A DNA stretch of 64,000 bases from Protoeuglena noctilucae (lineage: Eukaryota): contig OY253673.1 of NCBI GenBank assembly GCA_958009085.1, positions 434,001 through 498,000 of the forward strand. The letters are read 5' to 3'. The translations under genes and the position numbers were made by a program. The notes beneath the pieces are model-generated. The model was not told the origin of the DNA, did no database searches, and saw nothing but the letters and a program-made list of their open reading frames with translations. The first letter of the stretch is position 1. Each line of letters starts with the position of its first letter. Of this stretch, positions 51,656-58,586 are shown in pieces.

Positions 51656-54091
51656 TTAGCGCCCCACGCTGCTCTGCGACGGCACGCGGCCGCGCGGTGC
51701 CTCGCCACCCCCCGGCGTGGGCACGACGCTCAGTGGCGTCGCGTGGGGCGAAACGGTGGTCTGGCACTCGCCCAGCACGAACTGCGTGTGCCTCTGGTAA
51801 CGGACGGCGTCTGTGCCCGGCGTCTCCCTCCCCGAAGGCGTGTCCACTCCAGGTGTGATCGCGCCCAGGCCCCTCAGCGCGTCCTCTCCGCTCCCTGCTC
51901 CAGGCAGGCCCCGGGGCGTCTCGGGCACTGCCGTCCCGTCGTCCGCGTCCGCCCCGTGCGCACTGGGCCCACCCTCGCCACCCCCGCCCCTGCTACCCCA
52001 TGGCTGCGACGCGAACGCCGGCCACGGCCCATCGTGCCTCGAGTCCCCAGCCGCTCTCGGCTCCAGACCCAGAGCCCACTCGCCTCCGCCCCGTGCCCGC
52101 TTCCGCTCCCGCTCCGCGTCCTGCTGTGAGCCGGGGCCCCTCTGCAGTCACGCCACATGTAAGGTCGCTTCACTCATCACCCGCCCCTCACTGGTAAGAC
52201 ACAGTCACAGTCCCGGTCATCAGTCACCCACGCACGCAGAGACTCTGTCGCTCTCCCCGCGCCGCCAGTCCTCACCTTCCCGAGCCCACCGTCGCTCCCC
52301 GCGACCCCCGCCACTTGACCCAAGGGCGGCCCTGCCTCGTCTTGTGACAGACCCAGCCCCGCCTTGCTGCCGCGACTCCCCGGCCCCTCGGAACTCGTAG
52401 ACCCCACCAAGTTCGGACACACGTCCGCCAGCGCGTCCCCCCGCCCCGTCGCCGCCGCCACCTGGGTCGGCCCACGGTCTGCCACCGCTGCGCCCCCGGC
52501 CTGCTGCTGCCGCAGGCGGTTGGGGGAGTTGGAGTCCTTCTGGGACTTGAGCAGCGCTTGGAGGAGTAGCTCCTGCGGCGTGCCGTTGTCTTCCAGGCCC
52601 TGGGACCCCCCCGGTGGCGGCGGGGTGGGAACGGGGCAAGCACCGTCGTCCGCTCGGGCCAGGGACCCCGAGGACGCGCCACCGGCACGCGCCGCGTGCC
52701 TGTCCGGAAGAGCCGCGGGCGCCGTTGAAGGCCCCGGGGGCGTGGGGGGTGCGGGTGAGGGTGCGGGTGAGGGTGCGGGTGCGGCAACTGGTCGGGGTGC
52801 CGCTGCAGGTGCCGTGGAGTGCACTGGCGGGGGCGCGGGTGTAGAGGCGGGCGCGGGTGCCCTCGCGGGTCCCCTCTCGGGTGCCCTTGCGGGTGCCTTT
52901 GCAGGTGCCTTTGCAGGTGCCCTTGCAGGTGCCGTGGCACGGAACGCGCCGTGCACAGACGCGGGCGCCTCGATGCCCCGCGTGATCCCCGTCAGGCTCA
53001 GCTCGCTGGGATCGGACGTGGCGCGGGCCCCGGGGGTGTTCGGAGCGGGGCTGCCCCTCCTGTCTGTCGCACTCACGGGACTCCAGGGCCGGGAGGGTCC
53101 CTCCTGGCCCCGCCTCCCCGAGCCTCGGGCCTGGCGCGCTTGCCCTGCACCCGCCGCCGGAGCGGGCCCACCAAACCCGGCGACCGGAAGCGATGGGAAG
53201 GGCGCCAGGCGGTGTAGCCCTTGCGCGGCGGCCACCAGCCCCAGCCGCCGCGCCACCTCGACTTGGCACTGGGCGAGGACGCGGCGGGATTGAAGGAGAG
53301 ACTCCAGCCCAGGGACGCCCTCCATGTCGCGGAGCAACCCCATCGAGTGTTCCCTGGGAAGGGTTTGCATTGGGGGTCACACTGGTGGACAGTCAAAGGT
53401 TCTGCACCCCACGTGCAGCAGCATGTGTGACGCGCCATGCAGACCACCGAGTCCGCACCACATTGGGTGTCGTATACGCGGGCTCACCCGAGGAGCGCGG
53501 CCCGTCGGCGGACGTCATCCAGCAGCGCAAAGGCCGCATCGACGTCCCTTGATGCGTGCGCGAGGGCTTCCTGGCTGGCACGGGCCGCGACCGACAGCTT
53601 TCGGGCGAGGGAGGACCCTGGGGGCTGTGTGGCCTGCGTGGGTTGCATGGGAGCAATCAAGACTGGCGTTGCATGGCGCGCCCGCGAAACCCTCGCGACC
53701 CACCCTTGTCTATGGGTCTAGACCCGCTCACCTCTTGGGCCTGTTGGATGTGCTGCGCCTCGACTCCGAGACGAACGTGCTTTGCGACAGCGGCATCCAA
53801 CGCCCTCGCTGCGGCAGAGACCTCCGCAAACAGCGCACGGTCCCGGTCCGAGCGCGTCAGGGCTGCGACGTGCTCCGCAGGCACCGTGACTGCGGCGTAG
53901 CGATTTTCGATCGATGTTACTGCGGACGCGCTATGCCGTGCAATCTTTCCGGGCGCGCGCGCGGTCAGCGGGCGACAGTCACCGAGGGGTGCGACGACCG
54001 GCAGGAAGAGGGTCGCGGGGGCAGCAAATACGTCCTCTTCCCATCGCTCCGGTGGCCCGAGTCCAGCCACGCCTGGCTGCTGCATTGACAC
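51656..54091 (-). CDS. Uncharacterised protein with helical N-terminus and Pro/Ala-rich repeats
   Basis: Four phase-compatible exons. APAK/APAR and PAPS repeats at 52745-52935. No family motif recognised. Confidence 0.55.
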
Positions 54092-54617
54092 GAGCCCCAG
54101 GATCGGCCTGCGCGGCGCAACCTTCGTATCTCGAGATGTCGGCGGTCCGGCCGTGCTCGAAATAGGGGGGACGGGTGAACCTCAGCAGCTGTCGATGCGA
54201 CGAGAACCCAGAAATTGCAAATTTGGGCAGGGTCCCTGCCCCTACCACCGAGGCGTCGCGGCGGTGCGGAGAGGGAGCGTGCACAGCATGCGAGCCGAGG
54301 CTCAAACCACCCCCGTTGCGATTCCGCAGGAAGGGCCTTTCCGAGGCACTCAGCGACGACGCCATGGACTGTGCGATCAATGCCTGACCCATGAAAACGG
54401 TGCCAGCGGATGACACGGGGTCCAGGCTTGCATCCTTCGTTCAAGCTCATGATGGATGATTGGTGGCCACCACGCAACGTCTTGCGGAGAGGACTGCGTG
54501 CAAAATCTGCCTGCCGCGCATTCGCATCGCCGTCGCGCGCCCCACCCCATCGTTCGCAGTCTTGCGTCGTGCCCAATTCCCGCCACCCCGCCCGTCCATG
54601 AGCCTGCGCAGCGCTCT

Positions 54618-55019
54618 ATGCTGCATCGCCCGCCGACTACCATCGAGCTCAAGGCCGAGGACCGACTTGAGGCGAGCCGCGCGTGGGTTTGGACTTGGAA
54701 CGGGCGAGCGGCCCGCCGCAACGATTATCAGCTTCCCCTCGCTTTGCATTCGCTGAGAACCTGACACTCGCTTCACTCGTGCTACTCGCAGCTGGAGCGC
54801 ATTCAGCGGGAGAAGCAGGAGAGCCTGGGGAAGGCCAAGGGCCTCGGCGTCCCCCAGGATCCACGGAGCGCAGCCCAGCGCATCGGGCTCCCGCCGCACA
54901 ACGATGGTCGTCAAAGCCAAGTGAGCACTCGCGTCGGCATAGCGTCGATCTGTCGCAGAGCCACGAGAGGGTGGCGCAGGCTCACGGTCTGGGGGCGCCC
55001 GTGGTCGCAGCGACACTAA
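54618..55019 (+). CDS. CDC26: Anaphase-promoting complex subunit CDC26/APC12 (about 63 aa), upstream ORF of TTM3
   Basis: Exons 54618-54671, 54792-54920 and 55011-55019 give MLHRPPTTIELKAEDRLE|LERIQREKQE...RSAAQRIGLP. This matches the CDC26 N-terminal MLRRxPTxIxLKxED motif and the plant RIGL tail. Confidence 0.88.
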
Positions 55020-55026
55020 GCATGCA

Positions 55027-55799
55027 ATGGAGGTGGAGATCAAGTTTCGGCTTGCGAGCAAGGAGGACAGGGACAAGGTGCACGAGCTCTTCCGCAACGG
55101 AGCCGGGGACACGCACGAGCAGGTGCGCAGCCGTGCACCCTGCTCCAGGGGCCCCTGCATCTGTCGACCCCGGCAAGCATCGCGCATGTTTTCTCCGCGC
55201 TACGAATGTGCAGGAGAACTACTTCTTCGATGGTGCGCGCGGGGAGCTGAGTTCCACGCGGACGGTCCTGCGCGTGCGGATTTACGGAGGAACAGAGAAG
55301 GCCACGCTCACGCTTAAGGGCAAGGCGGCCGTCGTCGACGGCGTCAGCCGCGCGATGGAGGTGGGCGCTTTTGCTTCATAGCTCGTGCAGATGCCACGTC
55401 TGGTCGTGTGGCCTGGGACGGACTGCGGCCCTCGTTTTCGCTCCGCAGCTCGAGTCAAAAATCGATCCTGAGGTGGCGCACCGGTGCGTGGCGGAGCCGA
55501 ACACGATTCTCGAGATCCCGGGGCAGGTGCTGGACGCGGTGCGCGAGAAGGGCGTGGAGCAGCTGGTCGGATTGGGCGGGTTCGCCAACACGCGGCAGGA
55601 GCTGCGGTGGGAGTCGCTCCTGCTGGAGCTGGACGAGACGCGCTTCGAGTGGGGCACCGTCTACGAGCTCGAGTGCGAGACGGACCAGCTCGAGGTAGTC
55701 AAGCCGCGGCTCGAGGCAGCCCTCCGCGGGGCGGGCATCGCCTTCCGGGACGGCACCGTGACCAAGTTCGCCAACTTCGTCAACAAGACGCTCGATTAG
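55027..55799 (+). CDS. TTM3: Triphosphate tunnel metalloenzyme 3 (CYTH domain)
   Basis: MEVEIK (ExExK), ENYFFDG, VLRVR, TLKGK, GGFANTR, LDETRF...YELECET, KFANF. Introns 55123-55213 and 55361-55448. Confidence 0.95.
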
Positions 55800-55863
55800 C
55801 TCGAGTTGAAGCGCGATGGCCGATCAAAAGACTCGGTTAGCAGCTCGGCCCTGGGCCTGCGCG

Positions 55864-58586
55864 TCACACGCCCGCTTCAACTTGCGACGCTTTCGGCGCC
55901 ACCCACGACCGCGCCTCCCTCGCTTCGCCGAGGTCCAAGTCGTCCTCGTCCGGGTCGCCCAGATTCTCCACCTCTGCATCCTCGCCCCCATCTCCCAATT
56001 CCTCGGCCCCTTCGTCCCCAGACCACCCTGCCCCTGCCTCCTCATCCCCGCCACCGTATCCCTCACCCCCCTCGGCATGTCGACCCGCTTCTGCCCCATC
56101 CTCCCTAACGCCACCTTCGGCCCCGTCACTGTGTCCCGCCCCCGTCCCTGCCCCCAACTCCCTCTCAAACCCGGTCGCAGATTCCACCACGCAACCCTCC
56201 AGTCCTCCCAGGGGGCCCGCGGGCATTGCTGCAGCACCACCCGCGCCATCTCGTGCCTCTGCCCAACGCGGCCCTGCCCCGCTCGCCCCCGCACCAGGGC
56301 CCGCCTCAGCCCCGGGCCCAGCACCCTCCTCCACGTCCCCCGCCTCTTCCACAGTCCCTAGTGCCCCGCCTGGGGGCGCCAGGCCGTAGGGCTGGGCCCA
56401 CCCGCCCTGCGCGCCAGGCCGGGGACCCCCGGAAGCTGCCAGTTGCCGCTCGAGCTCCCGGATGCGTGCATTCATCCCAGCCATCAGCATGTCCATCTCG
56501 GCATCGAGCCGGTCCCTCTCCGCGAGTTCCCGCTCGTAGCCTTCGATCCTGCGCGGCTCAGACATGTGGGTAGGTGGTTTAGCACATGGTCATCGCTCAA
56601 AGGACGCTGTGGCTTGACAGTGCAACCACAGTGCCACAAGCGCTCTGGGATGCCACCCGCATTGAGCTTGAGCACGACACGCGCCCGTGCCGCTCACCGT
56701 GCCTCCATCGAAGTCTTCTGCACGTGCCAGCGGTGGACCTCTTGCTCCAAGTCGAAGATGACCGCGTTGTGGAGAGCGGACTCCGCCTCCCTCTCTCGCA
56801 TCTCGGCAACCAGGCGCTCAAACATGCTGCCCACGATCGCCTGCGGAAAGGGAGGATATGACATGGGAGGTTGCTAAGGGACGCACTGGCAAGCCCACGC
56901 AACACACCGCCTACTCTTGCAAGCGGCGGGCTGTCAGCATCGAGACCCCACCCGCCGTTTTCACCTTGCTGGAGTCTTCGGTCAGCACGGCCCCCTGCGC
57001 GACCTGCATCTTGGAGTTGAGCAGCCGCACGTACTGCCGGCGTAGGTTCTCGTACTGCTGCGACCCAAGCGAGCTGACGCGCGACGCCGTGACCTTCTGC
57101 CCCTGCAAACGGTGGATAAGAAACAACTTGCCCCATCTCTGGAGCCCAACGCAGGCCTGGGCTGAGACGAGGCGACTCCCGACCGTCGCGCACCTTCGCA
57201 GCCCGTAGCTGTCGGCGCAGATTGTCCGCCGCCATCTCCGCCAGGGCACCACGGTTGCGTGCAGCCTCGAGGGCCGCCGACAGCTGCGCGATGGTGCGGT
57301 TCTTGTCCGCCAAAGCCTCTGCGGCGGCAACTGATGTGGGATTAAACACAGTCCAGGCAGGTCGAAATGACCCTGCCTGTTCCCGCGCGCACTGCTGCTC
57401 CTCACCTGCCACGTCCCCGTCCCCCTCGACGCCGTCACCCTGCTCCCCGGCACCCCTGACGTGCGCCACGACGCGCTGGCCCTTCGCAGGTCCCTTCCCC
57501 TGGGCCGTCCGCATCGCACGCACCTCCTTCTCCAGCTCCACGTTGCGGCGGTACAGCTTCTTCATGATCGTCTTGGCCTGGTCCAGCTTCTGCGGTGGAA
57601 TCGACAAATGGAATGCTTCTGCTTGCGGCTCTCCGACTCAAGGCAGCGCTGGGACGGTCGCGAGGGTGCATGCGAGGTCGGCAGCACACTCGCACTTAGG
57701 AGCAGCCGGCACCCTCGCCTCCTGCAGCTGCTGCGACTTCTGTACGACCAGGACCAATGACTCCTTGGATTTGCCCTTCTTGGCCTTGGACGGTGCTTTG
57801 GAGGTGGCCTCGGCCGGGCCAGGCCCGGCACCCGCCCCGCCCTCCACCTCAAACCTCACGCCGTTCAGGTCGTTCAGCGCCTTCTCGAGCTGCTCGCGAA
57901 GCCCCGATGACAAATCCATCTTCCGGACATCCAGGTCGGCCAGGTGCGGCTGGGCTGCGGCCAGGGCCCCCGACTGGGCGGACAGGGTCCGCCCCCGCTC
58001 CTTGTCCAGGTCCAACACGGCCTCCCGGTGCTTCTCTTGCAACGCGTCCAGCTTCTTCTGCAGCTCAAGCGACTTGTCTCTGCGTGGCAGGGGACCCAGG
58101 GCTCGGTTCGCAGCAGACACGGGCGTGGCACTGTCGTGATGCACGTCCCCCGGCTCGCCTGTACTCTTCCATCATCCGCGCCGTGGTCTCCAGCTCCCCG
58201 AGTGCACGATCTCGATCGGTTAGTGCCTGCGGCAGCGCGCCGGTCAGCATTCGAGCCGCGAGGCAGCGAGGCATGCAACCATGCGGAAAGCAGGAAGGTC
58301 CTTTGCAAGCCAACCGATACTATGCCCCCCCCCTCAGTGCACCTCTGTAACGGCTCGACTCTCTCCGCTTACGGGGCTCTCCGCTCCGAGCCTAATGCCT
58401 CGCTGGCTGGTCACTGCAAATGCGATGCAAAAAGTAGGTGTGCCTCCCGCAGAGAGCCTTGCTGGCGTCTCTTCATGACAACCGCGATGCGACATGTAAG
58501 GAGGCTTTCAAGTACATTCGCGACGAGGGATGGGAGGGCCGCTGGACTCCCCGACGCGGACTCTCCCCCACGCACCCGTCATCATG
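55864..58586 (-). CDS. Uncharacterised coiled-coil protein with acidic tail
   Basis: Multi-exon with heptad-rich segments (KLDQAKTIMKKLYRRNVELEKEV; LERQL) and an E/D/G-rich last exon. Start approximate. Confidence 0.6.

Follow-up and report, generated by a model that had tools for sequence, protein, structure and literature searches.

CDC26 is a small subunit of the anaphase-promoting complex/cyclosome (APC/C), and its N-terminus docks on APC6/CDC16. A bicistronic CDC26/TTM3 gene is deeply conserved in plants and green algae (PMC11291117), and CDC26 is monocistronic in most eukaryotes (PMC7943633). The Arabidopsis bicistronic transcript (Lorenzo-Orts et al. 2019, Nat Plants 5:184, as cited in PMC6973038, PMC7943633, PMC9768141 and PMC11291117) is reported to be sensitive to nonsense-mediated decay (NMD) unless TTM3 is translated, and for algal bicistrons leaky scanning has been shown experimentally, including a test by mutation in Auxenochlorella (PMC11291117). 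The pair is listed in Chlamydomonas, Volvox (with expressed sequence tag support), Dunaliella, Auxenochlorella, Prototheca, two Chlorella species and Nannochloris; in the same published tables the row cells for Chromochloris, Coccomyxa, Ostreococcus and Micromonas are empty, and CDC26 is labelled "unannotated but present" (PMC11892635). We describe a locus on the + strand of a 64,000-nucleotide (nt) stretch of the Protoeuglena noctilucae genome, hereafter the window, that is very probably an orthologue of the green-lineage CDC26/TTM3 bicistronic gene, with two open reading frames (ORFs) on one mRNA and leaky scanning as the most likely mode of translation. Since such bicistrons have been described before in plants and green algae, the window extends the known set by one alga and is not a new kind of gene.

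All coordinates are window positions, with the strand set by splice-site dinucleotides; the GC content of the window is 0.65-0.74 per 4-kb step. ORF1 runs from ATG 54618 to TAA 55017-55019 and encodes 63 residues once two introns are removed. ORF2 (CYTH/TTM3) runs from ATG 55027 to TAG 55797-55799 and encodes 197 residues after splicing of two further introns, and the gap between the ORF1 TAA and the ORF2 ATG is 7 nt (55020-55026). The initial annotation had proposed this spliced 63-residue ORF with TTM3 starting at 55027, and both the sequence and the RNA contigs bear it out. It had ascribed the split of ORF1 to a single GC-AG intron containing a stop codon; this intron (54672-54791) is real, but the 63 residues additionally require a second, previously undescribed GT-AG intron (54921-55010). 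Reading past exon 1 (next bases GCGAGC) meets TGA at 54762-54764, and because the unspliced frame reads on to this stop, the ORF list holds exon 1 only within the longer ORF 54456..54764, as had been pointed out earlier. CDC26 and TTM3 occupy different frames of one spliced RNA, and the observed splicing does not fuse them into one protein, an outcome that the initial annotation had named as one that would speak against a bicistron. Its premises, namely an upstream CDC26 ORF in the TTM3 mRNA of green plants and polycistronic mRNAs in algae, agree with the published record (PMC11291117, PMC11892635).

Chlamydomonas reinhardtii (Cre16.g662200) and Auxenochlorella protothecoides (UTEX250_A12.38655/38650) carry the same pair in the same order (Duenas et al. 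2025, PMC11892635, the PNAS version of PMC11291117). The Chlamydomonas ORF1 AUG, with T at -3 and C at +4, is identical in context to that of the window; its table row gives no ATG in ORF1 or the inter-ORF region, whereas two AUGs lie between the starts in the window (PMC11892635). Like Arabidopsis, the window has CDC26 as the small upstream ORF (65 residues there, 63 here) and TTM3 downstream on the same mRNA, and an NMD-prone layout is predicted in both. ORF1 of the window is split by two introns, the first of the GC-AG class, and its stop codon shares one 112-nt exon with the TTM3 start. As in the green-algal polycistronic loci that use leaky scanning, a short ORF1 in weak context precedes an ORF2 in strong context (PMC11291117). 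The spacer of 7 nt is far shorter than the medians of 183 and 40 nt for algal bicistrons (PMC11291117). The local traits of the window are thus the GC-AG intron 1, an intron 2 that ends 6 nt before the stop codon, stop and start in one exon, the 7-nt spacer and a splice-dependent AUG. A new local detail is that, after splicing, the strong-context AUG 54904 falls into the TTM3 frame, with a possible 26-nt ORF overlap instead of the 7-nt gap.

The assignment of ORF1 begins with its first exon. The 20-residue exon-1 piece from 54618 has ANAPC_CDC26 (PF10471) as its sole Pfam match, residues 1-15 aligning with profile positions 1-15 (E 2.3e-4). When compared with the PDB, the same piece gave only two matches, both human CDC26 chains, aligned from the first residue of each over positions 1-16 at weak E values of 0.74 and 1.3. 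The CDC26 N-terminal motif M-L-x-R-x-P-T-x-[ILV]-E-L starts at Met1 of ORF1, and alignment with human CDC26 (PDB 3HYM with APC6; 4UI9, 5KHU and other APC/C structures) likewise runs from Met1 over 16-18 residues. Human CDC26 has 85 residues compared with 63 here. A further ATG in the CDC26 frame (54456-54458) lies 23 nt upstream of the end of the longest RNA contig (54479); if transcription began further upstream, a start at 54456 would add 54 residues before the Met1 that matches human CDC26 residue 1.

Related loci extend the comparison beyond a single sequence. Scanning metagenome contigs with a TTM3 alignment yielded 37 loci; in 25 of these, a first exon of the CDC26 type precedes the TTM3 match on the same strand (12 distinct peptides); in 169 kb, the exon-1 motif had no match downstream or on the opposite strand. 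An alignment of 12 exon-1 peptides contains six invariant columns. The profile of these peptides, with the window included, retrieved four distinct human CDC26 sequences from the PDB (E 1.2e-5 to 8.7e-5), followed by Schizosaccharomyces pombe Hcn1/Cdc26 (E 0.42). The N-terminal pieces of the relatives match ANAPC_CDC26 in 11 of 11 cases at 14.8-29.5 bits, three of them above the cut-off and one with an extra weak match. GT stands directly behind codon 18 in 11 of the 12 loci examined, and exon 2 was modelled in nine; the intron at this position is common to ten loci (the window and the nine modelled relatives), and L002 is continuous there. Only the window has a GC donor at intron 1, a donor otherwise identical to that of its own intron 2.

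For the full peptide, a hidden Markov model (HMM) was built from the full peptides of six relatives (spliced or unspliced), with the window excluded, and scored over 2876 sequences. The spliced 63-residue peptide reached 42.6 bits (E 1.3e-11). The best of 2000 shuffles reached 14.1 bits, and the best of 875 other window ORFs, which is the unspliced ORF holding exon 1, reached 24.3 bits. The gain from 24.3 bits unspliced to 42.6 bits spliced therefore indicates that exon 2 contributes, and exon 2 has a charged stretch and the C-terminal AQRIGL in common with L001, L003, L004 and L035. ORF1 is more than a chance reading frame, and by its sequence it is assigned to CDC26. That it serves only for regulation, as an upstream ORF with a functionless peptide, we consider exceedingly improbable. 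Nothing specific favors this view beyond ORF1 being short and upstream; the peptide sequence is kept across distant relatives whose GC content ranges from 0.47 to 0.76, it matches animal CDC26 from residue 1, and CDC26 of the corresponding Arabidopsis locus is essential (PMC7943633).

ORF2 is recognized by the Pfam family CYTH (PF01928) in two exons, at 23.7 and 26.5 bits with a cut-off of 23.2. Its last exon matches plant TTM3 proteins of known structure (PDB 8H92, 3V85 and 5A5Y; E 1.4e-19 to 3e-17), and the nearest database homologues share 46-55% identity. The 32-residue piece encoded by exon 3 gave chance matches only when compared with the PDB. The spliced 197-residue protein can be aligned over its whole length with five of these homologues; it starts with M-E-V-E-I-K, which contains ExExK, the family-defining motif of TTM3/CYTH. 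ORF2 is accordingly assigned to TTM3, a predicted tripolyphosphatase of the CYTH fold. The only database protein with 100% identity at the locus (P0001, 55374-55799) is a 142-residue mis-call that begins within intron 4. Two protein searches found neither CDC26 nor full-length TTM3 of Protoeuglena noctilucae, the exon-2 query giving zero candidates.

The spliced structure is directly visible in RNA. An index search returned eight runs with all or part of the stretch. Four metatranscriptome runs of one study (X1-X4) hold about half of the words of the stretch, which fits exons only, and the other four, whose library type is unstated, hold all of them. Contigs of the four RNA runs were placed on positions 54000-56400 at an identity of at least 99%, with no other letters. 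All four introns are spliced out in contigs of all four runs. The position of the intron 1 joint is uncertain by 2 nt; GC..AG is the only placement of a known splice class, and the mRNA is identical whichever placement is chosen. Single contigs lead from the leader through both ORFs in three of the four runs (X1, 54479-55944; X2, 54494-55835; X3, 54498-55832), and overlapping contigs cover the same span in X4. The RNA contigs of X1-X4 leave 54198-54478 and 55945-56189 without cover. Because the joint between exons 2 and 3 lies 16 nt ahead of the TTM3 AUG 55027, an RNA exists in which the CDC26 coding sequence is spliced directly to the exon that starts TTM3. At the level of contigs, as distinct from single molecules, both ORFs lie on one mature mRNA with CDC26 first. 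The bicistron postulated in the initial annotation is thus upheld by contigs across both ORFs in three runs, by the four joints in all four and by the families of both products; its span of 54618-55799 is present as single metatranscriptome contigs, which are not Iso-Seq molecules.

These joints also bear on the source of TTM3. Most of the protein could in principle derive from a separate monocistronic mRNA begun in intron 2 or exon 3, with the bicistronic RNA being real nonetheless, and transcript starts and rare forms would be invisible to contigs. No contigs retaining an intron or starting inside the locus were seen in X1-X4, although contigs drop rare forms and their absence is not implied. 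The TTM3 AUG, however, comes only 16 nt into exon 3, exon 3 is joined upstream to CDC26 exon 2 in every run, and the published algal cases are exclusively bicistronic (PMC11291117). We therefore regard a mainly monocistronic origin of TTM3 as very improbable.

How both ORFs could be read is suggested by their start codons. In all seven modelled loci (the window and six relatives), position -3 is a pyrimidine and +4 a C at the CDC26 AUG, and position -3 is a purine and +4 a G at the TTM3 AUG. Between the two starts, five AUGs were observed across the seven loci compared with 13.7 expected. Out of frame, the single AUG is that of the window at 55022, compared with 9.1 expected (Poisson P 0.001); it weakens the argument that the expectations come from base composition only and the seven loci are related, which makes the P values rough. 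The shared start-context pattern and the near-absence of out-of-frame AUGs fit leaky scanning as the ancestral translation mode of the pair.

In the proposed mechanism, the + strand pre-mRNA is spliced at four introns to a mature mRNA with the 63-residue CDC26 and 197-residue TTM3 ORFs. Part of the 40S subunits would initiate at the weak-context CDC26 AUG 54618; the remaining subunits would pass on to the first following AUG of good context, either 54904 or 55027, and begin there; a start at 54904 would lengthen TTM3 by 11 residues. Downstream of the CDC26 stop, two exon junctions follow at 103 and 250 nt. Ribosomes ending at the CDC26 TAA would leave both in place downstream, so that the mRNA is predicted to be NMD-sensitive unless TTM3 is translated. 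The ORF structure, the splicing, the co-linearity on RNA contigs, the families of both products and the start-context pattern are shown by the data; we infer the translation of both ORFs, the leaky scanning, the link to NMD and the choice of the TTM3 start.

Alternatively, ribosomes might terminate at TAA 55017-55019 and resume 7 nt further on at AUG 55027 of the same bicistronic mRNA. The very short spacer would suit such termination-reinitiation, as would the related locus L003, in which stop and start overlap as TAATG. Eukaryotic ribosomes usually reinitiate poorly after an ORF of 63 codons. The spacers across loci vary widely, namely -1 (L003), 7 (window), 17, 119, 172 and 242 nt, and this range argues against a mechanism that needs tight coupling of stop and start. 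Moreover, leaky scanning predicts both the start contexts and the paucity of out-of-frame AUGs, neither of which reinitiation requires, and experiments in a green alga favor leaky scanning at such loci (PMC11291117). Reinitiation therefore appears quite improbable, and given a real bicistron, leaky scanning is probably the mode of translation. In L003 (2752-2757; GC content 0.48), zero AUGs lie between the two starts.

Within leaky scanning, TTM3 might start at AUG 54904, which would give an 11-residue N-terminal extension and a 26-nt overlap of the ORFs. Past the CDC26 start, no AUG comes earlier than this codon, and none of the AUGs has a better context; only splicing brings it into the TTM3 frame without a stop, and its use would render the out-of-frame AUG 55022 harmless. 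Relatives tolerate such extensions: L001 and L004 have in-frame AUGs upstream of the TTM3 start, and as TTM3 of L029 must start 11 codons upstream, N-terminal extensions occur naturally. On the other hand, four of the five full-length homologues aligned begin right at ExExK (the N-terminus of the fifth, P0004, is truncated), and one in-frame AUG among two could be chance. We hold a start at 54904 to be a serious possibility, with somewhat less than even chances. In L029 (2515-2560), no Met stands directly before the ExExK of TTM3.

A stronger version would let the splicing of intron 2 set the reading of TTM3, with TTM3 made mainly in the extended form from 54904 and intron 2 acting as a switch for the CDC26:TTM3 ratio. 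Removal of intron 1 alone leaves an ORF1 of 93 residues with the same TAA as its terminus, so that retention of intron 2 would be in frame and stop-free for CDC26, and AUG 54904 would then open a dead-end ORF of 6 codons. We consider this switch rather unlikely. A bolder form, in which AUG 54598 opens a 270-codon TTM3 isoform with its first 73 residues taken from the alternative frame of the CDC26 ORF, is less likely still. As a real isoform, this stop-free reading in the TTM3 frame was rejected: shuffling of codon order gave P 0.38 in the window and values under 0.05 in two of the seven loci, L004 has three stops in the frame, and the region is T-poor. The first 73 residues, which are the alternative frame of the entire CDC26 ORF, are rich in Arg, Ser and Ala.

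Several observations weigh against a CDC26/TTM3 bicistron read by leaky scanning. The comparison with the ANAPC_CDC26 model suggested in the initial annotation gave a divided answer: it is the only Pfam family matched by exon 1, and the other profiles are positive, but the Pfam score of 22.4 bits lies below the gathering score of 24.5 and concerns the exon-1 piece alone, not the spliced peptide. Exon 2 alone matches no Pfam family, a word-based homologue search with exon 2 returned no candidate, and among the 12 peptides, that of the window alone lacks the near-invariant Arg8, having Thr instead. The RNA evidence consists of short-read contigs from one study, with no caps, poly(A) ends or single molecules, and an additional or minor monocistronic TTM3 mRNA, which is compatible with the contigs, may exist beside the bicistronic one. 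Taken alone, the window has no AUG depletion between the starts (two observed, 1.54 expected). AUG 55022, with A at -3, lies out of frame 5 nt ahead of the canonical TTM3 AUG, and a further AUG (54598) lies ahead of the CDC26 start. The leader of at least 139 nt exceeds the medians of 83 and 54 nt for algal bicistrons, and it is this longer leader and the missing depletion at the single locus that distinguish the window from the green-algal loci with leaky scanning (PMC11291117).

The remaining relatives are less uniform. Twelve of the 37 loci have no CDC26-type exon, four of them with less than 400 nt of upstream sequence. L019 and L025-L028 have no recognizable CDC26 first exon in 3000 nt upstream each; there, either the pair is unlinked or CDC26 lies farther away or has diverged. 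At L011:821-870, a CDC26-like start runs into two stop codons beyond its 15th residue, which may reflect an intron at another position or a decayed copy.

Table 1. Features of the CDC26/TTM3 locus in window positions.
Feature	Positions	Strand	Size, context and support
5' leader, RNA-supported	54479..54617	+	at least 139 nt; contig ends 54479/54494/54498/54500 in X1-X4, which are not transcription starts
Upstream AUG in leader	54598..54600	+	weak context, -3 T, +4 A; TTM3 frame after splicing
CDC26 start AUG	54618	+	weak context, -3 T, +4 C
CDC26 exon 1	54618..54671	+	18 codons, CDC26 N-terminal motif; Pfam, PDB, alignment
Intron 1	54672..54791	+	120 nt, GC-AG, phase 0 behind codon 18; in-frame TGA 54762-54764; RNA joint in 4/4 runs
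CDC26 exon 2	54792..54920	+	43 codons including conserved C-terminal AQRIGL; RNA joints, HMM
Strong-context AUG	54904..54906	+	-3 A, +4 G; TTM3 frame only with intron 2 removed, 11 codons upstream of AUG 55027
Intron 2	54921..55010	+	90 nt, GT-AG; ends 6 nt ahead of CDC26 stop codon and 9 nt ahead of the ORF end; RNA joint in 4/4 runs
Shared exon 3	55011..55122	+	112 nt; last 2 CDC26 codons and TAA, 7-nt spacer, AUG 55022, TTM3 start with ExExK
Out-of-frame AUG	55022	+	-3 A, +4 C; opens 45 codons
Canonical TTM3 start AUG	55027	+	strong context, -3 G, +4 G
Intron 3	55123..55213	+	91 nt, GT-AG; RNA joint in 4/4 runs
TTM3 middle exon (CYTH domain)	55214..55360	+	Pfam CYTH 23.7 bits; RNA contigs
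Intron 4	55361..55448	+	88 nt, GT-AG; RNA joint in 4/4 runs
TTM3 last coding exon	55449..55799	+	TAG 55797-55799; Pfam CYTH 26.5 bits; plant TTM3 structures
3' UTR (untranslated region)	55800..55944	+	at least 145 nt; reach of X1 contig

In the neighbourhood (50.2-58.8 kb), none of the 15 long ORFs matches any Pfam family at E 0.01. A convergent ORF of 233 residues on the - strand (55864-56565) has no Pfam match, and RNA contigs lie over 56190-56400. The TTM3 3' UTR, which reaches at least to 55944, overlaps the 3' end of this ORF by about 80 nt, so that TTM3 and the - strand transcripts probably overlap tail to tail.

As the biology of the pair is known, the locus is of use for annotation and for comparison. 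Gene callers routinely overlook CDC26, and here the gene model, GC-AG intron included, is supported by RNA throughout. The window and its metagenomic relatives share the phase-0 intron behind codon 18, the C-terminal AQRIGL and the succession of weak and strong start contexts. With its 7-nt spacer and an AUG that splicing brings into frame, the locus offers a compact natural setting for the question how start choice and splicing determine the ratio of two proteins.

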